Source: Eledone cirrhosa
Taxonomy: Eukaryota
Direction: 5' to 3'
DNA length: 64,000 nucleotides
Assembly: GCA_964016885.1 (NCBI GenBank)
Contig: OZ024742.1
Span: 107,570,001-107,634,000, forward strand
Position numbers and translations under genes: made by a program. The notes below the pieces were generated by a model, which had not been told where the DNA came from, did not search any database, and saw nothing but the letters and a program-made list of their open reading frames with translations. This document shows positions 5,931 through 62,458 of the stretch, piece by piece; the first letter of the stretch is position 1, and every line of letters starts with the position of its first letter.

Positions 5931-8900
5931 TCAGTCAACGCGATCAGTCGCATATTTTGGCGTGGGAGACTATTTATTAAACTTAAGATGAATACTATCT
6001 CCGACAGTAATGCCACAACTACAGTCATGTTGAATAACTGGTTATTCTTCTAACTATATCTTCTGAAGACACCTTTTATTCTAATTCGTAGAGATATCCG
6101 ACTAAATACATAATTCATTTTACAAGGATTTGCTACAAACAGCATGGCTGAACACAACATCAACAACAAAATTAAGGAAGTATCCAAGACAAACAACGAG
6201 AAAGGTAAACAAACTTTATTCAGTTGTAGCTACAGAAGAAACCGAAATTATAAATCGCATTGCTCTTGGAGTTGCGAACATAATGATGATTTATTTAATT
6301 GCTATAAAATGGCAAAAAAACAATCCCTCCATTGGCTATGAACAGAATGAAGCTACACTGGGATGAAATACTCACAGGACTAAATTATTCCACAGCGAAA
6401 CAATTACGCCAACAAGCGACGTTTGTTGAACGTAAAAATAAGATAAATATTATTAATTGTAAGTCCCCCACAACAAACATGGAATCAACACCACGTGCTA
6501 CAGATCACCATGCTACTAGACTTCCTAGCAGCCAGGTCGAACAGTGCCTTGAAACAACTATGCCTGTAAGAAACTTGACACCACCTGTACCATCTAAGTC
6601 TACCTCGAATGCTGGGGAAAACACTATCGATAATAATAATAATCGAAGAAATAATAATAATAATCGAAGAAATGTGACACCACGTGTACCATCCGAGTCT
6701 ACCTCGACTGTTGTGGAAAATACTATCGATAATGATAATAATCAAAAGTATAAACAATTGAAAATTTCCCCCAACGAAATCTTCCAGAGAGAAATTAATT
6801 TATGTATAAATATTTCTCTTGCTGAACGTATTAAAACGACAATATTTAATAAAAAAAATAAATAAGGAAATATTACGTGTTATTGACGAAATAGGGGATG
6901 AATATTTACGACGGATAAAAACCCAACATTTAGCAAATCAACGCCTGTTTATATGCTTTAGCAACGACAGTGAAACATTATCTTGGTGATAGCAGAGATA
7001 TTAACAAGAACAAAACACCACAAAAAAATACCATCATATATAACTAAAATAGAAAAAAAGATTGCTGACCTACGATATGTGACAATGCTCCTTACATACA
7101 AACAAACACAAAAAAACCTCACTGCTCACCAACAAAGAGTGAAAAATAAAATAGAGACGATATTTGGTAACAGTAGAACCAGAACTCTTCAATATAAACT
7201 GATCACCCTCACACAAGAATTGAGAGCTGTTAGCGAAAAACGCCGATACCTGAAGAAGGTAGATGAGAGAAAAGTCCTTAATAAAAGATTCAGACGAAAC
7301 CAAACATCAGTGTATAGAGATATGAAGAACAAAATAATAAGTGTCACTGAGGCCTCATCCCAGAAAGACAGATTCCTTTTGGAGAAATATATGGGGTGAA
7401 AAGAAGAATTTCAACCAAGATGCAGTGTGGCTAAAAGAAATCCGAAAGAACCATTGTTCCTACACTACAACAAAAACATACGAAATAAGTGAGGGTACCC
7501 TTGAGACTGTGATAGGAAAACACCAAGATAAGAAAACACCAGGAAGAGACATGATTGTCGGCTACTGGTACAAAAAACTGATATTCTATCGGAGGTATCT
7601 TACTGACCTCTACCAACAAGTTCTTAAGGGAGATACACTTATACCAGAATGGTTGACATTAGCACAAACATTACTGGTCCCCAAGAACAAAGACACCCAC
7701 TTGGCAAAAATCTACCGACCCATTGCATACCAGAACCTGATGTATAAGATGTATACAGCTTGTCTGAACCTATTCCTCCAAGATCACTCTGAAAATAATA
7801 ACATCATCACAGATAAACAAGCAGCTGGAAAGAAAGGGGTTTGGGGATATGCTGAATAACCCCTAATCAACTGCTCGTCGGAGGTGCGACAACTTAGGAG
7901 GAATATGGCTACAGTCTGGCTGGACTACAGGAAAACTTTCGATTCTGTTCCCCACTCTTGGATGATAGAGGCCCTTCAACTCGCCAAAGTCCCAGACATT
8001 ATTATCAGAGCCATAGAGAAGCTGTCTTCTTCTTGGGCTACTATCCTAAGGTTAAAGACAGAGAGGGAGGACTATTTTCACTGATAAAATAAAATATTGC
8101 AGGGGTATATTTCAGGGAGACAGTCTCTCTGTGATATTATTCATTCTGTCATTAAACCCCTTGTCCTTTCTGCTCAAGAAATGTGAAGGATACATCATTG
8201 GCTCACAGGAGGACAGAAATACGAACCTAACCCATAATTTCTTTGTGGATGATCTGAAACTCTATGCCAAGAACATGGATGGGATAAAGAAAAATCTTGA
8301 CCTGGTTACAACGTTCTCAAAGGATATAGGAATGGAGTTTGGCCAAGATAAATGCTCATACATGACTGTAAAGCGGGGGAAAACAACCCAATCTATCAAC
8401 ATTGTCATCAATGGCCTAACTGTTTCATCGATATCTGATGAGGACTACTACAGATACCTGGGGATAGATGAGAACATATCCTATAATGGTATCTGTAATA
8501 AGGAACGCGTAACCAGGGAATACTACACCCGTTTAAGAAAGATTTGGTCATCGGAACTCTCTGTGCAAAACAAAACAGTGGCTCACAATGTGTTTGCTGT
8601 GCCTGTCCTAACACCAACTTTTGGAATACTCAATTGGACGATAGACGAAATCCGAGCAGTTGATGTTGGAACTCGAAAAATACTAAACAACACCGGAAAC
8701 TTCTACATCAACAGCGACATAGACCGCCTTTACTTGAAACGTAAGTAGGGAGGCAGAGGCCTAACACCAGTCCAGGCAGCATTTGAATGTCGCATCATAT
8801 CCCTCCGACAACATCTACGAACCTCGAAGCATAGGAGCCCGTCTCTCGAACAAGTCTATCTTCATGAAACAGATAAGATCATGAGAGTTGGGAAGGAACT

Positions 8901-9810
8901 CCTCGAGAGATATTCCCTGAGTGATAATCAAAAACTCACACCCAGGGATGTCGCTCAGCGTATCGCAGTGAATCAATGGATGAAAAACTGCATGCTTATC
9001 AGCAAAAAAATCAAGCATGGATATGTTGCCAGAAAACTCCAGAGTGAGAGTAATATAGATAAGGAAAGTAGTCTATCTTGGACCAACAACCGCTATATTG
9101 GCTCCCACTTTGAAGGATACGCTTTTGCAATCCAAGAACAGGAAATTAACACGAAATACCTGATTCACAAAAGAGATAGGGATGCAGGCAAAACACCTAG
9201 ATGTGATAGCAAGTGCAGACTCTGCCAAACTAACATCGAAGATATCACCCATGTCATCAGCAGCTGTCTAAAGATGTCATGGCGGTACTATCTACCTATG
9301 AGGCATGATGTAGTGGCCAAAACACTGTACAATGCAATCCATAGAAAAGATAGCCCCGATAATAAACACATTAAAAGCTACAGCAATGTGGATGACATCC
9401 ATGTACATAATATGAAAGACTACTGGTGGAATTGTTCCAGTAAAAACCCTAATAAAATGCAGGCATAACAGACCAGATATTATGATATGGGTCAGGGAGA
9501 AGAAAGCATGCACAGTAGTGGAAATTAGCTGCCCAGCAGATGCCAATATAATATCAAAGATTAGCGAAAAGGAGAATATTTATGCAGAACTGATGAGATA
9601 TCTGCAGATACTCCACCCTGATTTACACCTTCAGATTTATGCCTGTGATTATTGGGGAACTGGGGTATGTTAGTAACTGCCTCAATACAAATCTTGAGAA
9701 GCTAGGCTTCACAGGAACAGAAAGAACACAACTAATTAGGAAGTACAATCCATTAATGGAACAGTAAAAATATGTAATACATTCCAAAATTTTGCATCCA
9801 ATAACTGCAT
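5931..9810 (+). mobile_element. Near full-length R4/Dong-type (RLE) non-LTR retrotransposon inserted in (TACA)n, decayed
   Basis: Single-ORF architecture with RT, CCHC knuckle and restriction-like endonuclease; starts directly after a TACA tract. Confidence 0.9.
6144..9803 (+). pseudogene. RT-RLE polyprotein pseudogene with several frameshifts and stops
   Basis: YRPIA, VWLDYRKTFDSVPHSW, GIFQGDSLS, FFVDDLKLYA, YRYLG, GGRGL after the TAG at 8746, CRLC..HVISSC, RHDVVA, RPDI..VEISCP. Confidence 0.9.
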
Positions 9811-15869: not shown

Positions 15870-15997
15870 AATATGGTTTTATAAATATAGTTTCCATTTA
15901 TTAATATCGTATATCTACTCCAAAAATTTGTCGAGTGCTTTATATCAGTTATAAAAATATTTACTTGTTGTATCCCAACAACTTTAAATAGAACTTT

Positions 15998-16051
<54 letters not shown>

Positions 16052-16065
16052 AAAGTTCTATTTAA

Positions 16066-18378
16066 CACCATATGGACTAACATCTGTGTCCAACGAAAAC
16101 TGCCAAAGAAGGTAAAAAACAACATAATGACTCGAAACAGCAAATTACCCACCTTCTACCACCTGGTTAAAACACATAAACAAGGACCCGATTTGAAAAT
16201 CAGGCCCATTGTCTCTAGCGTGGAGGGCCCACTCTACAAAATATCGTGGCTGCTCTCCACACTACTGAAACCCATTCTACACACACTACCAGCCCACGTC
16301 TGCAGCTCAAAGGAGGTCTTGGAGCGACTACACCATCTGGCGCCCAACACCAGAAAGGACAACGGTTATGCCTTCAGTCTTGATGTGGTCGCCCTTTATA
16401 CCTCCGTACCAGCATCCCCAGCTGTCGACCTGTTGACCGAACGAGTCCGAGCATCTAACTTACACTGCTTCGGACTCACACACACGGACATCCACCAACT
16501 CCTCTCCTTCGTTGTGGATAATGCACTCTTCAATTTCCTCGCAACACGTACAAACAAATCTCTGGGCTACCTATGGGCTCTAGTCTGTCCGGCATACTTG
16601 CGATCTCGTACATGGACCACCTGGAACGCAAGGCACTCAATACCTGCCAACCCAACGCCGTCGCCTTCTACTCCAGATACGTTGATGACATCCTGATACT
16701 TACTTCTTCCCGGGAGATGGCGAATGAAATTCACCAAATCTTCAACGATACTGACCATCACGTCGATTTCACCATCGAACACCCAGGAGAAGACGGGTCA
16801 CTCGCCCTCCTCGACTTCCGTATCAACATCTCGGAAGAAGGAGACATAAACACCACCTTCTACCGCAAAGCAGCGTGCAAGGACTTATTTGTGCATTATA
16901 ACTCAGCCCTCCCCAACAACGCTAAGAGAGGCTATGTCCTAAATGAACTGACACGGATCACTAACAGATGCAGCGACCCGATGGGTGGTCTCACCCATAC
17001 CACGCAATTCCGTAATCTACTCAGATCTAATGGTTATCCCAAGCGACTGATTAACGGAATTAGAGACCCCAGACCCAATAGACAGACACCCACTAGAAAC
17101 CTATATAAAAGCAGGTGCTTCTTTAAAATCCCCCACCTGAGTGAATATACCACGAACGCCATCCGCAGGGCCATACAGACGGACGGACTTGACATACATT
17201 TGGCCCACACAGGACCTTCGCTGCGAAGATGCCTCTCCAACAAACCCGACGAGTCAGATGGGACGTGTTCCCTCAGCAACTGCCCGATACGGGGGGCAGA
17301 TTGCCTACGCACCTATGTCGTATATAAGATTCAATGCGATAAATGTAACAAGTTTTACATAGGTAGCACCATCCGACCCCTACATGTTCGTATCAAGGAA
17401 CATATCAACACCAACGCATCTTCCTTCCGTAAACACATCCTTAAATGCGGAAACCCACAGGGTAGACCCTTGGTCACAGTCCTAGCGACTGAACGCAGCA
17501 TCGGATCCTTAAGGATAAAAGAAGCACTTGTTATTAAGAACCTCAGACCCCCACTTAACAACCGGGCTGAGAGAAATGAGCTGACGTGGCTAACTTAACC
17601 ATAGTGACCATTCACAGCCTACGGCCTGCTATCTTCACACACACGCACGTATATGCATACCCATACGCATACACACACACATCTATATTTATACACGCAC
17701 ACATGTTTTTACAACCTACCACCTTTCACACCCTTTGATTTCCAGCTTCTACAGCCCACTATCTTTCACACACAAACGCACTCACACATATACACACACA
17801 GTTACACACACATGTATACCCATACGCTTACACACACACATCTATATTTATACACGCACACATGTTTTACAACCTACCACCTTTCACACCCTTTGATTTC
17901 CAGCTTCTACAGCCCACTATCTTTCACACACACACACACTCACACATATACACACTTACACTTATACACACACAGTTACACACACATATATATTTACACA
18001 CACATATCTTACGGCTTTCACTCGCTAGCGCACCCTCTTGATTTTGGTCAGTAGCTTTTGCCACAGCCTATCACGCGCACGCGCATTCTTTCCCTCGTTT
18101 AAATTTAAATAATTTTCTCCCCATAACGGCATTCCTGTCTTAACGACATCACAACTTTCTCCGCTTGGCCTGTTCCCCCCCTTTTGGAACTTTCCCCCGT
18201 TGATGGGCGTGAGCCCGAAATATTGGGATTAAATCTCCACTACGGTAACCCTTCTACCTTTGTTTTGTTTTCATCTTTGTCTCTCTCAATTTTCACTTTC
18301 ACCTGTTTTTCCTATCTATCTTTCACTTCCTACCTCGAGAAGATTTCCCTCTGCATTGTTGTGGCTTTCTTAACTACG

Positions 18379-20904: not shown

Positions 20905-20987
20905 AATAATTTTGAGATAGAGTGTCCGTGTTGTTTGCTCTGATCAGATCAGAGCAAACAACACGGACACTCTATCTCAAAATTATT
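20905..20987. repeat. Perfect palindrome, 41-bp arms, 1-nt spacer
   Basis: ..GCTCTGATC a GATCAGAGC.. centred on 20946. Confidence 0.95.
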
Positions 20988-22316: not shown

Positions 22317-22595
22317 GGGGTGCAGAATTAATTTCGCCACTGAATAAATTTCGCCCGGTGAACCCCAACCAAAGTTACTCCCGTCGTTTATATCCGTAAA
22401 GTGACTAAAGATTAAAACAAATGTAATATATTTACGGTTAGGGTTAGGGTTAGGGTTGAATTAACCCTAACCCTAACCCTAACCGTAAATATATTACATT
22501 TGTTTTAGTCACTTTACGGATATAAACGACGGGAGTAACTTTCGTTGGGGTTCACCGGGCGAAATTAATTCAGTAGCGAAATTAATTCAGTAACC
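22317..22595. mobile_element. Fold-back MITE with central head-to-head (TTAGGG)3/(CCCTAA)3 and 9-bp TSD (Mutator-like)
   Basis: Near-perfect palindrome centred at about 22460; GCCTGAGAG at 22308-22316 and 22596-22604. Confidence 0.85.
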
Positions 22596-22708
22596 GCCTG
22601 AGAGCGGTCAGTCCACGTGGTGACCTCGGCGCGCGAGCATCTCTGTTGTGTTACTGTTGTGATTTTAGTTGCTTTTGGTTTATTTCGATAAAAATCTTAG
22701 TTTCAACC

Positions 22709-24449
22709 ATGAGTCCCAAGAAAGTGGGTGCCAAGAACACTGGCGAGAAAAAGAAAAGGATGACGTCTATGGATATTAAGCACGAAATCGTAGAAAAACA
22801 TGAGCGTGGTGTGCGTGTTATTGACTTGGCAAAGGAGTACGATCGTAGTACTTCTACAATATGTACTATTTTGAAACAAAAGGATTCAATAAAGGCTATG
22901 ACACCAGCCAAGGGTGTTAAGATAATATCTAAGCTCCGGACCTCTGTCCATGAAGAGATGGAAAAGTTGCTGTTGGGGTGGTTGACCGAGAAGGAGCTCG
23001 CTGGAGATACCGTAACCGAGACCATCATCTGTGAGAAGGCACGAGTTATTTATGGAGATTTGGTGCGGCAGACGGCGGGATCATCCTCGGACGAGGCATC
23101 GAAAGAGTCATTCAAAGCCAGTTGGGGGTGGTTTGATAATTTTAAAAAGAGGACTGGCATTCGCTCCGTCGTCAGGCATGGTGAGGCTGCAAGCTCAGAT
23201 TTTAAGGCAGCTGAAGAATTTACTTCATATTTTGGTGAACTGGTAGAAGCCGAAGGATACATTCCCCAGCAAGTCTTTAACTGTGACGAGACAGGGCTAT
23301 TTTTGAAAAAGATGCCAAGGAGAACGTACATAACATCAGAGGAGAAGAGCTTGCCAGGCCACAAACCTATGAAGGATAGGTTTACCCTTGCACTGTGTGC
23401 AAATGCGAGTGGCGATTTAAAGATTAAACCGCTGCTCGTGTATCACTCGGAAAACCCCAGGGCCTTTAAGAGTCATAAGATTCTTAAAGAAAAACAACAG
23501 GTTATGTGGAGGGAAAACCCAAAGGCATGGGTCAGCAGGGAGTTTTTTGTGCAGTGGGTAAACCTAGTTTTTGGTCCTGCAGTCAAGAAGTATCTTTTAG
23601 ATAATAACCTACCCTGAAAGCCTACTCGTCCTTGACAATACACCCACCAAAACTCGAGGATGACATCTTAGAAGAATTCAAGTTTATTAAGGTCTTGTAC
23701 CTTCCAACCAACACCACCCTATCCTTCAGCCCATGGACCAGCAGGTGATTTCGAATTTTAAAAAGCTCTTCACCAAGCATCTCTTCCGGCGCTGCTTTGA
23801 GATTACGAAAAACACAAACCTCACCCTTCGAGAGTTCTGGAAAGAACATTACACTATCGTAGCCTGCCTCAACATTATAGACATGGCCTGGCAGGGTGTT
23901 ACAAGGAGGACCTTACACTCTGCATGGAAGAAGCTGTGGCTCGAGGTTGTGTCCGAAAAGGACTTCGAAGGATTCGAACCCGAACCCGAAGAGTTAGTGG
24001 AGGAGGAGATCGTGTCCATCGGAAAATCCATGGGCCTGGAAGTGGACGAAGGAGACGTTAACGACCTCGTCGAAGAGCACAATGAGGAATTGACAACGGA
24101 GGAATTAAAGGAGCTACAGGACCAGCAGCATACAGAGATTTGGCAGGAAATTAATGAGGGGCCAGAGTCAGAGGAGGGAGTAATCCCTTCAAGTGAAATT
24201 AAGGAAATGTTGAGAATTTGGGAGAAACTTAATGATTTTATTGACAAAAATCATCCAGAAAAAGTTGGAACAAGTCGCGCGTCGGCACTGTTTAACGTCA
24301 CTTGCCCCACTCATTTCAGAAACATTTTAAAAGGGAGGAAGAAACAAACCTCCTTGGACAGGTTTTTATTGAAACGCCCTCAAAGCGAAAGCGAGGAAAG
24401 TGTGGCCAAAAAGCCAAAAGTCAGTGAAGATGATGATGACAGTAACTGA
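22709..24449 (+). pseudogene. Tigger (TIGD/CENP-B-like) DDE transposase, frameshifted near 23615-23660
   Basis: N-terminal HTH, FKASWGWFDNFKKR, VFNCDETGL, KDRFTL..ANASGD, LPTNT..QPMDQQVISNFK. Confidence 0.92.
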
Positions 24450-25029: not shown

Positions 25030-25033
<4 letters not shown>

Positions 25034-25214
25034 AACAAGTATGACCCCGACGGCAGAGATCAAGCCGTTTCGACGGCCCATCTGGTTTCTTACCACAACT
25101 CTTTCGTTATATATATATATATATATATATATATAACGAAGAAGTTGTGGTAAGGAACCAGATGGACCGTCGAAACGGCTTGAGCTCTGCCGTCGGGGTC
25201 ATACTTTTTCCTAT
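25030..25214. repeat. Inverted repeat with (TA)n spacer (family D)
   Basis: 25030-25110 versus 25132-25214. Confidence 0.9.
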
Positions 25215-25617: not shown

Positions 25618-26519
25618 TACAAATGAATATATGATAGGGATAAACACTGATACAAGTATACATGTGTTCATATTGCAAATGACCAAGTTAGCTAGATTGA
25701 AAAATACTAATTAAAATAATACGGTTTGCCTGTCTCGATTTAAAATAATAAATCAATAAAAACAAACCTATATTGGCAATAGCCGTGATACCTGGACAAA
25801 TTTAAATTCCAAATTTCAAATTTGTTTCGCAACAATTAAGTGAAACTTCCTATTTCTGTGCTCTTCTGCAGGTATCCAGAAATTGGTAAGTTTCACTTCT
25901 AAATACTTAGGGAGACTGAGAGAAATGTGTTTTTTAACGCACACGTGTCACAGTATCTAGCACGTCCTATACTCGTGCCGCTAAAAATAGCAGCCGGTTT
26001 TATGGGACTAAAAATTAGCTCAACGCTTGGAACCGAGAATATATATAGAGTTATAAACTCAAATAAAAGACGATTTGAGTTTATAACTCTATATATAATA
26101 TTCTCGGCTCCAAGCGTTGAGCTAATTTTTAGTCCCATAAAACCGGCTGCTATTTTTAGCGGCACGAGTATAGGACGTGCTAGATACTGTGACACATGTG
26201 CTTTCAACAACACATTTCTCTCAGTCTCCCTAAGTATTTTGAAGTGAAACTTACCAATTTCTGGATACTTACAGAAGAGCACAGGAATAGGAACTTTCAC
26301 TTAATTGTTGCGAAACAAATTTGAAATTTGGAATTTAAATTTGTCCAGGTATCACGGCTATTGCCAATATAGGTTTGTTTTTATTGATTTATTATTTTAA
26401 ATTGAGACAGGCAAACCGTATTATTTTAATTAGTATTTTTCAATCTAGCTAACCTTGGTCATTTGCAATACGAACACATGTATACTTGTATCAATGTTTA
26501 TCCCTATCATATATTCATT

Positions 26520-41398: not shown

Positions 41399-41405
<7 letters not shown>

Positions 41406-41934
41406 ATACTTTGGGAGGGTCATGTTGCCAATAAGAAACACACGCACCAGTTGCTTTCACTTCAATTTATTATAATAAATTTATAAATTTCCGGTTGGTT
41501 GGTTGGTTTCACAACCAGATGGTTGTTTATATATTGTCAAAGTTCTTTCGTCACACATTCTGTGACCTCTTCAGTGACTGGGGGTTCTTTTCTTTGTTTT
41601 TTGTGCCTCTCCTTTGTTCTGTCCTACGCCATCTTGTTTTTTCTTTTGATGGCGTAGGACAGAACAAAAGAGAGGCACAAAAAACAAAGAAAAGAACCCC
41701 AGTCACTGAAGAGGTCACAGAATGTGTGACGAAAGAACTTTGAAAATATATAAACAACCATCTGGTTGTGGAACCAACCAACCAACCGGAAATTTATAAA
41801 TTTATCATAATAAATTGAAGTGAAAGCAACTGGTGCGTGTGTTTCTTATTGGCAACATGACCCTCCCAAAGTATAACAATATCGGTTTCAACACACGTTT
41901 TCAGATAAAGAATCTTGCTAAACAAATTCAGAAA

Positions 41935-50391: not shown

Positions 50392-52620
50392 CTACAGTTC
50401 TAATTTGCGATGTTTTACTTTAGAAAATTTTTCAATCACGATGCTGAAGTCAATTTTTTCAGCCAGTTCTCGCTCTATGTACATCATTGCCAGAGCATTC
50501 AACCGCTCTTTACTCATGGTACTACGCAAATAATTCTTTATCAGTTTGAGCCTGCTGAAGGTTCGCTCAGCCTGCGCCGAGCTAACCGGAATAGTTATGA
50601 ACATTTTGTATAAGGCAAACACGTTCGGATAGGCTCTATCTAAGTCATTAGAAATCATAACCGGAACGATCTCAGAACTCGATATGGATTTATCTAAACA
50701 CACTTGCTTGTAAAAATCTTTGAATGATAAATACTCGTCGAAGATAGTGTCATTTTCGATGTCACCCTCGTAGAATTTCACAAGATTATCGATTCTCTCT
50801 CTATTGCATGTGTCGTCGTCGTCGTCGAAGTGCGCCGGTATCAAGCACGAAAAATCCTTCACTAGATCGTGCAAGTCGGCAAAACGTTCGTTAAAGCTAC
50901 TAATGATTCTATCTAAGATAGTGAAATAAACGTCCCGTTTAAAATGCTGACTCATCGTCTCATGAGGTTCGTCACTGGCATTTTCGTCATGAAAACGCTT
51001 CTTTTTTCTTTTCCGTTTTTCTGTTGTAAACTCTGGTTCAACTTGACATTGCTCGGCGAGATTTTTAGCGTCTGATAATGTTCGGTCAAAATATTCATTT
51101 GAGCGGATGTCTTCAATTTCTTTTACTACATTTGTTAATCATGACGTCCGCGGAATATAAATCGATAGCCTCCTTCTGCAAATATTGGGAAACAGAATGC
51201 AGCTTTTTAAGTAAATTCTGAAAAAACTTCAACATGAAAATGAATTCAAACTTGCTCACATTTAGTAGCAAACCTATGGCCTCGGTTAATACTTTCGGAG
51301 CAGTGTTGTGAACATCCCCACTTATTATCGTCTCTAGTGCACTTATTACTGTCGGTAAGTTGTTAATGGTAGCCTCTACAGCCTGAATGTGACTAAACCA
51401 GCGCGTATCTGAGAGTCTTTTTAATGTTAATACCGTTGAAGTCAATAGTTTTTCTTGTTTTTTTTTGAGGATTTTCAGCCTTGGCAAGCTTGATGTTAAG
51501 AAAACATACAGGCTCTCCAATATACCAAAATATAATTTACCATCCACTGACGATTGGCTAGCATCGATTAACACCAGGTTCAGGTTATGAGCGCAACAAT
51601 GGACGTAAACAGCTTTCGAAGAGCATTCCTCTTTAACTCTAGCCTGAAGCCCAGAAATATGGCCGGACATATTCGACGCTCCGTCGTAAGCTTGTCCCCT
51701 AATATATTGAGCATCCAAGGATAGATCCTGGAAAAGAACTTTCACAAGCGTATCGTAAAATGATTCAGTGGCTGCTGATTCTAGTTCACAAAACGACAGG
51801 AAATGCTCCTGTGCGTGGCCACTTTTCGATACATATCGCAGTGACACAGAGCATTGATCCTGATGCGAAATGTCTATTGTGGAATCGACGATGACTGAAT
51901 AGTATTTTGCCGCTTTCACTTCCGTGATTATTTGTTGAGTACATTCGTATGCCAGGCATTCTATGAATTCGTTTTGTAATTTTGGATTTAAGTATATAGG
52001 CTGTCTTTTAGTGCGCCCAGGCGAGAATAAATGGCTTTCCAAGATCGTATCATATTTGGCCATCAATTTCAACAATTCAATAAAGTTTCCTTCATTTTCT
52101 GATTTGGCGCCAAGTCCAGCATATTCCCTGTGACCTCTGAAGGCCAGGCCTTGTTTTGCGAGAAATAACGTACAATCAAGCAATCGCCTCAATATCTGGC
52201 GATTTCGTTCAATTCGCTTCATATCTTCATGGATGAGGTTATCGATTACTGTTTTATCTGCGTCCAAACGATATTTTGTCATGAAGTATTGCTTTTGTGC
52301 ATTGATGTGAATGGCACTTTTCTCATGCTTGGCAATTTTTTCGATTCCTTTTTGAAGTTTGCCATCCCACACTCTGGATTACCCCAAGTCTTCGAGTAAG
52401 ATTCGGCATTTTTATCAGCAAACAGCCAACAACAAAAGCAATATAGTCTGTTGGATTCAGGAGAGTATACTAACTAGTGTCGGTCAACTTTATGGATTCC
52501 AGCACACTTTCTCTTGTACCAACTGATGTTGAATTTTCTGTGGTTCGAGTCGAGAGGAAAATCAGCAAAATTATCTTTCAATCCTGGCTGACAAGGACCA
52601 ACGGCCATGAGGGCGCGAAT
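50392..52620 (-). pseudogene. hAT transposase, disrupted
   Basis: LYCFCC, LAFRGH, GNF, IVDSTIDISH.DQ, AYDGASNMSG, VHCCAHNLNL, TRW, IPVSSAQAERTFSRLKLIKNYLRSTM; breaks near 52474, 52375 and 51120. Confidence 0.92.
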
Positions 52621-60930: not shown

Positions 60931-61380
60931 TATACATATATATATACATATATATATATACATACATAACAGCCGTACTAAGAGTGGGAAATGAAATTTC
61001 GTTTCATTTTTTCCGTTTATCGTTTTCGGTGCACCCGGCCGATTAACCCACTCGATATGCAAATTGGGCTACTCAGCCGTTAATATGCATAAGGTAAGTA
61101 TATACGTTCAACAATCTGGCAGGAAGGTATACGTTGCTGACGATAGCTAATAAGCTTGAAACCAGTACAGCGTTCCTTTGTCAGTGTTGAACAAACGAGC
61201 AACGATGGTTGCTGGACACTACGGCTTAATACGGGATGTTTGTTTACAAACACACCGAGAATTATAATAAATGTTCGGTGAATCCATACGTACATATATA
61301 TATGTGTGCTTGTATGTATATATATATATATACTACTGTACGTCTGTATACATATATGTATGTACGTGTACATACTTATA

Positions 61381-61557: not shown

Positions 61558-61645
61558 ATATAATATAAAACGAAAAATCAGTGATGCATCTGAACTCAAT
61601 TTATTGAGTTCAGATGCATCACTGATTTTTCGTTTTATATTATAT
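61558..61645. repeat. Perfect palindrome, 43-bp arms, 2-nt spacer
   Basis: GAACTCAAT tt ATTGAGTTC. Confidence 0.95.
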
Positions 61646-61761
61646 ATATATATATACAGAGGTAGAACACTGGAAGGTAATATCCGTAGTGGTAGAGCAC
61701 TCAGTCCATGGGACGAGTTAGTTAGAAGTGGTGACACAACAGTTAGTTCCGCCATAATGAC

Positions 61762-62458
61762 TAAGCATTTTGAAGACCTTACGCTATTCTTTTAAAGTAG
61801 TGACTATGTCACTTACTTCTTTTTTCATCAAACAAAGGGAGATAAGCTGACAGATCTCTGTTTCGTACTGTTGGTACTCCTCAGAGCTTAGCACTCCCTT
61901 TGTTTGTTGAAAATTATGAATGCTGGATTCTTATAGAATTCCAATAATAATCAGGAATTGATTATACAGAGCGGTTGCCTTCTTTTTTCAGCTGAAAAAA
62001 GAAGTAAGTGACATAGTCACTACTTTAAAACAATAGCGTAAGGTCTTCAAAATGCTTTTAATTAAGCATACAGTGTATTGTCAAATACACTGTATATACA
62101 TTCATATATATATCGCTATTTCATAGCACAAATTCTAATTTTCAATTTTTGCTGGACCGGCAACCGCTCTGTATAATCAGTTCCTGATTATTGGAATTCT
62201 ATAAGAATCCAGCATTCATAATTTTCAGCAAGCAAATGGAGTGCTAAACTCTGAGGAGTACCAACAGTACGAAACAGAGATCTGTCAGCTTATCTCCCTT
62301 TGTTTGCTGAAAAAAGAAGTAAGTGACATAGTCACTACTTTAAAACAATAGCGTAAGGTCTTCAAAATGCTTTTAATTAAGCGCACAGTGTATTGCAAAA
62401 TACACTATATATACTTTCATATATATATCGGTATTTCAGAGTACCAATTCTAATTTTA
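61762..62458. mobile_element. Retrozyme-like element: inverted partial copy plus about 1.5 tandem copies of a 315-bp HHR unit (family E2)
   Basis: GCTGAAAAAAGAAG at 61991 and 62306; 61762-61979 inverted. Confidence 0.85.
62245..62292 (+). ncRNA. Type I hammerhead ribozyme with GUC site; mirror at 61843-61890(-)
   Basis: TAA(A/G)CT-CTGAGGA-GTAC caaca GTAC-GAAA-CAGA ga TCTG-TC-AGCTTA. Confidence 0.87.

Follow-up and report, generated by a model that had tools for sequence, protein, structure and literature searches.

The 315-bp repeat near the end of a 64,000-nt stretch of the Eledone cirrhosa genome (contig OZ024742.1, forward-strand positions 107,570,001 to 107,634,000; hereafter "the window", whose own numbering we use) is very probably a non-LTR retrozyme that was inserted by a Penelope-like reverse transcriptase (RT)-endonuclease, with a monomeric circular RNA as the probable template. 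One insertion of the unit fills positions 61763-62457 in the form of two head-to-head arms without LTR structure, a minus arm of 217 bp and a plus arm of 467 bp, each of which carries a type I hammerhead motif. BLAST inside the window resolved this layout: 61763-61979 matches 62159-62372 in inverted orientation (95% over 217 bp), and 61991-62142 recurs at 62306-62457 (93%), which gives a period of 315 bp and confirms the inverted-plus-tandem arrangement reported in the preliminary description of this locus. When unit positions are counted from the predicted ribozyme cleavage site, the inverted arm (61763..61979, minus strand) covers positions 188-315 and then 1-86, and the plus arm (61991..62457, plus strand) covers 1.5 units, namely 20-315 and then 1-171. 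The arms meet in a perfect 26-bp palindrome, a fold-back join (61979..62004). The plus arm stops at the longer ("tail") of two 3' sites, adjoining a short AT-rich stretch, and the minus arm is cut short at its 3' end and fused to a 3'-terminal fragment of another family, Z (61661..61757, minus strand). This fragment, which makes up the outermost left part of the insertion, begins ~5 nt past Z's own hammerhead cleavage site and ends at an (AT)n tract (61640-61658).

The hammerhead motif of the minus arm (61843..61890, predicted cut between 61849 and 61848) is intact, with a stem I of UAAGCU/AGCUUA, a CUGAGGA core, a stem II of GUAC/GUAC, GAAA, a 4-bp stem III of ACAG/CUGU, and a GUC cleavage triplet. 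In the plus arm, a 20-bp enclosing helix (62222-62241 paired with 62294-62313; fold z -4.5) surrounds the motif (62222..62313, core at 62251, predicted cut after 62286), where stem I contains an A·C mismatch that is absent from 36 other copies. Because both arms carry one variant missing in 36 other copies plus three minority variants, and differ from each other by ~5%, we take them to derive from one template and to have decayed since. The locus is accordingly an ordinary decayed copy, a fossil insertion. The unit contains no ORF of 100 aa, and one chance minus-strand frame overlaps its last 80 bases. Assembled contigs from three sequencing runs of one sample yielded many short fragments of the family and no piece spanning the locus.

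The 315-bp unit is indeed a sister of a 310-bp unit, as first described: BLAST aligned the region to that unit with 69% identity over 433 bp (E 1e-33), and a global alignment of the two monomers had 202 of 325 columns identical (62%). All sequence blocks quoted in the preliminary description were found in the sequence. Its notion of a structure conserved without sequence held in part for the fold, which is kept incompletely, but not for the whole unit, since sequence identity is still 78% in a conserved arc that contains both 3' end sites (62041..62186, plus strand; sites at +142 and +168-171), compared to 40-51% in the arc bearing the ribozyme. A young array of the sister is present in the window at 29765..31356, where an inverted arm (29765-30087) is followed by 4.1 identical tandem units (30087-31356) and the 3' ends of both arms lie in (AT)n. 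The hammerhead of this unit has a CUGAUGA core, a minimal palindromic helix III, and a GUA triplet. Outside the array and its (AT)n tracts, 29663-29730 and 32336-32403 are inverted copies of each other (96%), which suggests that the array may have inserted into the centre of an earlier palindrome.

Units of the family are 310-320 bp long with a GC content of 0.32-0.35. In the 3.0-Gb genome, the 315-bp unit returned 2510 candidates, 40 of which were scored, all at 91-100%. Exact genome matches numbered 21,043 for a 22-mer common to both sisters, 19,077 for a 16-mer of the 310 ribozyme, and 1,549 for a 20-mer of the 315/320 ribozyme, with 0 for the backward control in each case. From the fetched loci, which were chosen nonrandomly by similarity or pattern, we collected 131 distinct near-full copies, some of which may have entered twice through overlapping loci, and these fall into at least five subfamilies. 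The subfamily of the 315-bp unit is old (91-95% among copies) and the 310 family is young (98-100%); the core pattern is intact in 44 of 44 310-type copies and in 62 of 87 older near-full copies. Among the matches listed, a 320-bp subfamily with a U3:A8 core forms multi-unit arrays with a spacing of ~320 at C1:82390494-82394977 and C1:114379869-114380528. One pattern scan of metagenome contigs gave no match to the family.

Further repeats surround these copies. Near-perfect palindromes occur at 20905-20987, 25032-25211, 25620-26521, 27620-27774, 28131-28401, and 41402-41878, as well as at 61563-61640, next to the insertion, where a 78-bp palindrome with a weak Rfam miRNA-hairpin score is the source of sub-threshold miRNA matches. 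These palindromes, several of them bounded by (AT)n, probably arose as short insertions of other Penelope-type ends in a head-to-head arrangement. A perfect tandem duplication with a period of 615 bp joins 750-1622 and 1365-2237 (100% over 873 bp). By their motifs, we take 6308-9468, 22586-24449, and 50392-52378 to be remnants of a non-LTR RT, a Tigger/pogo-like transposase, and a hAT-like transposase, respectively.

Insertion ends and array uniformity

Penelope-like elements are marked by partial tandems, an inverted 5' copy, an optional tail at one end that is 30-40 bp long in the literature, and a bias for microsatellites (PMC8557442, available text). The Penelope protein of Anolis cuts both strands of AT-rich DNA and is a predicted dimer, the tail representing the distance that separates its two internal start sites for RT (PMC11167929, available text). 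The Eledone copies show the same insertion features: their 3' ends are fixed and their 5' ends vary, there is an inverted 5' copy and an optional tail, and the targets are AT-rich or (TA)n. In the older subfamilies (70 loci, after removal of 4 overlapping duplicates from the 74 listed), 93 of 112 outward 3' ends fell at +133-143 or +163-179, and the outer 5' ends were scattered (n = 28); contact with (AT)n was made by 66 of the 93 classed 3' ends versus 3 of the 28 outer 5' ends. Two outward 3' ends were present in 42 older loci, with both ends classed in 26 and an unclassed end in 16. Of these 26, 19 used one of each site and 7 used the same site twice, where roughly half would be mixed if the ends were independent. 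In the 310 family, 15 of 15 distinct two-armed loci (duplicate loci removed by hand) paired an arm ending at +139 with one ending at +163-170, two additional loci being one-armed, and 41 of 47 of the family's ends touched (AT)n in a table that includes duplicates. The two end sites are ~26 nt apart, and the resulting 26-nt tail usually occurs once per insertion. Since the blocks common to both sisters form one arc that holds both of these sites, this conserved arc is likely the enzyme-binding domain, in line with the earlier suggestion that the shared blocks are RT-recognition signals.

The young arrays are uniform within a locus and differ from locus to locus. Across 14 loci of the 310 family, with arrays of up to 16 full units, 101 of 105 units matched the type of their locus (4 were singletons), and the mean number of differences was 0.07 within and 2.9 between loci, values that assembly polishing could have smoothed toward uniformity. 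There were 9 types over these 14 loci; both arms carried the locus type, and none of the arrays was a mosaic. A locus variant that is fixed in every unit and in both arms implies a bottleneck of one unit, which a circle could supply.

The likely route of insertion, as we infer it, is the following. A retrozyme array would be transcribed, and the ribozyme, possibly acting as a dimer, would cleave the transcript into 310-320-nt monomers, which would be ligated into circles. The Penelope protein would then bind the conserved arc and cut both strands of an AT-rich target, upon which two cDNAs would begin at sites ~26 nt apart, each traveling round the circle over a variable distance, until their far ends would be joined head to head. 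In this scheme, the ribozyme arc drifts in sequence with its helices kept, and the likely enzyme-binding arc keeps its sequence. A bolder reading, about as likely as not, sees in the arrays a record of rolling-circle target-primed reverse transcription, in which a dimeric Penelope enzyme would start two cDNAs 26 nt apart on one small circle and turn it into two head-to-head concatemers in a single event; the RNA would be a modular replicon whose enzyme-binding arc stays constant and whose ribozyme arc is interchangeable and open to capture from the helper. If true, the rolling-circle reading would name a helper class, a binding domain, and a template for animal retrozymes, and would provide an in vitro system.

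The main alternative, though an unlikely one, is that the Penelope enzyme copies an uncleaved linear multimer, the transcript of a pre-existing array, or that arrays lengthen by unequal crossover once inserted, so that there would be no circle and the ribozyme would matter little. Insertion by the Anolis protein in vitro was independent of ribozyme cleavage (PMC11167929, available text), local amplification by unequal crossover has been proposed (bioRxiv 10.64898/2026.07.22.740005, available text), and the runs of the older subfamilies reach at most 2.4 units (70 loci), all of which would fit such a scenario. The fixation of each young array for its own variant in both arms argues against it: Any later growth must have expanded both arms ahead of any mutation.

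Autonomous Penelope-like families in the same genome

The genome also contains autonomous families that could be compared to the retrozyme. Families Y and Z encode RT and C-terminal endonuclease-like domains, where the assignment to Penelope-like elements relies on motifs read in the proteins and, for Z, also on atlas look-alikes; Pfam gave no match for the Y or Z proteins, and BLASTP gave no significant match between family Y and the window's other Penelope-type ORF. Family Y (37031-39199; L134-L145) has 808-aa open frames and, by eye and unscored by the descriptor, a possible hammerhead with a CCGAAGA core and a very long stem II at ~60 nt from one 3' end. Family Z (32968-33738; L226-L233), presumably Neptune-like by its motifs, has copies that are ~94% identical, a hammerhead in the 3' UTR, and two 3' ends 64 nt apart. 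Family W (35057-36835 and 2629-2815; L280) has a 758-aa frame in L280 and 852-bp head-to-head arms in the window, and is very young (98-100% among the best 40 matches). A second type of Penelope-like ORF, divided between two frames and with an RVT_1 match and a weak GIY-YIG match, lies at 15992-17972 and is followed by a 158-bp tandem.

Families Y and Z obey the same one-end-per-arm rule as the retrozyme copies. Y ended at +61/+237 (gap 176) in 13 of 13 two-armed loci (42 loci in total), and Z ended at +38/+102 (gap 64) in 6 of 7 (30 loci in total). Because the corresponding gap of the retrozyme is 26 nt, neither Y nor Z is identified as its helper. We considered family Z for this role on account of two chimeras with the retrozyme, the insertion at 61763-62457 and one other, and rejected it, as a later Z insertion explains both equally well; two narrow genome-wide patterns for further chimeras returned just the same two.

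The preliminary description had the ribozyme swapped between the sisters, and a specific version of this is that the 310 family took its ribozyme core from the young autonomous family W, such that the sisters differ by a module swap. This we find doubtful, despite a match of 25 of 28 bases between W and the 310 core plus stem II, the best score of 10 comparisons. The non-core part of the 310 ribozyme scored 18.4 against W, compared to 12.4-15.0 against its own sister subfamilies and 5.6-15.0 against six other ribozyme families; W is young like the 310 family, and the two chimeras with family Z exist. Yet 11 of the 28 bases are invariant core, and the U·U at the base of stem II and the AAYA-type loop also occur in the family at 61137, so that convergence is possible. 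Moreover, stem I and helix III differ from those of W, the enclosing helix is homologous between the sisters by its 3' strand (shuffle p 0.0075; 5' strand p 0.17), and the distance between the sisters is partly spanned by other subfamilies. The proposed ribozyme swap has partial support.

We also weighed whether the unit is the detached terminal repeat (pLTR or 3' UTR) of an unsampled autonomous Penelope-like element, whose copies would be 5'-truncated. The end pattern is identical to that of truncated Penelope copies, and Xenopus retrozymes match pLTRs in 24 of 57 families (bioRxiv 10.64898/2026.07.22.740005, available text). Against this, Penelope ORFs directly upstream in sense were found in 0 of 103 loci tested (at L086, an ORF was the insertion target). 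In family Z, by comparison, 21 of 30 loci had their own ORF inside 1.5 kb, and what lies upstream of a retrozyme unit is another unit or an inverted arm. None of Y, Z, and W turned out to be a parent that carries this unit as a terminal repeat, and they have no extended sequence in common with it, the 28-base ribozyme match being with W only, in a comparison that covered three of probably many autonomous families. We regard this origin as improbable and retain insertion of a separate, noncoding retrozyme by a Penelope-like enzyme.

Ribozyme motif and RNA fold

A type I hammerhead descriptor matched the locus at 62251 (plus strand) and 61884 (minus strand) and had 14 matches in the window, versus 0-1 in each of 10 shuffles. 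Further type I motifs, at 2374, 15813, 59534 (minus strand), and 61137, belong to at least three other families. Rfam scans returned no hammerhead, whether at the gathering score or with E values of up to 10 allowed, so the assignment as a ribozyme is based on the descriptor together with covariation.

Of the 68 base pairs named in a 32-row alignment, 25 had both members altered, among them 13 of the 20 pairs of the enclosing helix, 5 of the 6 of stem I, and 3 of the 4 of stem II; 21 of 500 shuffles attained the observed number of double-change pairs, and the compensatory counts reflect five subfamilies and are thus nonindependent events. Pairing was retained in 90% of the cells versus 36-46% in slid registers, a contrast that is inflated by taking the structure from one alignment row. 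The enclosing helix and stems I-II covary across the five subfamilies, and RNAalifold recovered the enclosing helix unaided. On the plus strand, G·U pairs outnumbered A·C by 70 to 18. At core positions 3:8, the 131 copies split into 97 with C3:G8, 22 with U3:A8, and 12 others, where the swap to U3:A8 is one known from Penelope ribozymes (PMC4209133, available text). These observations support selection on the fold of the 315/310 RNA, as had been suggested for a ~310-nt RNA at the outset. Of the two hairpins that were thought to keep their places in both sisters, GTGAC/GTCAC is kept in position with a shifted register in the 310 family, and ATAATCAG/CTGATTAT is broken there at 5 of 8 pairs in 8 of 8 310-type rows.

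Folded as circles, the two monomers had minimum free energies with z scores of -6.8 and -4.8 relative to 60 shuffles, and good folds were obtained for either strand. For the 315 ribozyme, the active fold is predicted at -17.3 kcal/mol, 2.3 kcal/mol higher than its minimum-energy fold (-19.6 kcal/mol). Helix III is self-complementary in all four subfamilies examined, so cleavage as a dimer fits. Within the conserved arc, folding predicts mutual pairing for the blocks ATAGCG/CGCTAT and CAGAGC/GCTCT, with a pairing probability >0.5 for ATAGCG/CGCTAT in 13 of 17 circular folds.

A purely DNA-level origin of the stems and inverted arms (template-switch palindromes or assembly fold-backs), with no selected RNA structure, would accommodate the common fold-back joins, such as the 26-bp palindrome above, and the good folding of both strands, but it is very improbable, because the G·U excess on a single strand and the tertiary C3:G8 to U3:A8 swap within an otherwise kept, unpaired catalytic core make DNA palindromes alone a harder explanation, and because the arms, ~5% different and with distinct end sites, are unlike read fold-backs.

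Comparison with known systems

By its sequence-level features, the 315/310 family appears to belong to a known kind, the animal non-LTR retrozymes. Like those (PMC7229834, main text), it consists of tandem noncoding repeats in the range of 150-450 bp with a GC content below 45%, has one type I hammerhead per unit and a highly self-paired predicted circle, and coexists with Penelope-like elements (also PMC7761336, available text). As in the axolotl (PMC7229834), there are two sister families in one genome, one of which has a minimal palindromic helix III. What sets the Eledone copies apart from the animal retrozymes of PMC7229834 are the head-to-head arms, the (AT)n targets, and the two fixed ends; the terms "inverted," "microsatellite," "head-to," and "octopus" are absent from the main text of that paper. 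RNA and circles were demonstrated for the retrozymes described there, whereas those of the Eledone family are predicted from genomic sequence. The review PMC7761336, in its available text, presents a circle-to-multimer model and no conserved motif that would indicate a helper, and leaves the integration route and the circular template as open questions; unlike the retrozymes it covers, the Eledone units have a conserved arc that carries both end sites. Our literature search, which left most subscription journals outside its scope, found no description of the family or of a one-end-per-arm pattern for retrozymes. For octopus, a repeat annotation includes active Penelope families (PMC13282606); "ribozyme" and "retrozyme" are absent from its main text, and its supplement may hold the repeat as an unclassified family.

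The family, seemingly a new one of a known type, may thereby offer useful mechanistic evidence on animal retrozymes. It makes the questions of integration and template testable, as it comes with precisely predicted start sites, a candidate for the binding domain, and candidate helpers in the same genome that are young, autonomous, and equipped with long open frames, next to young units that number ~19,000, differ little from one another, and would total ~6 Mb if all were full length. A recent preprint (bioRxiv 10.64898/2026.07.22.740005, available text) concludes on the same helper class and derives retrozymes from Penelope repeats. Its case is built on vertebrates, from co-occurrence and homology to pLTRs, and it proposes that tandems amplify locally, in contrast to the insertion-end evidence used here, to arrays that we suggest were born whole, and to the lack of a detected pLTR parent. 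Of the retrozymes predicted in Xenopus, 1 of 9 cleaved in that study.

The closest likeness in terms of insertion is with the endonuclease-bearing Penelope-like elements of the Neptune, Poseidon, and Naiad clades (PMC8557442, PMC11167929, and PMC4209133, available text). These share with the Eledone units the 5' truncation, the partial tandems, and the inverted 5' copy, as well as the tail at one end, the AT-rich or (TA)n targets, and a type I hammerhead near the 3' end that includes a U3:A8 variant. The Eledone units differ from Penelope-like elements in having no ORF and in forming long, perfect arrays of repeats only, and from Penelope-like terminal repeats in that no sequence homology was found with the three autonomous families compared.
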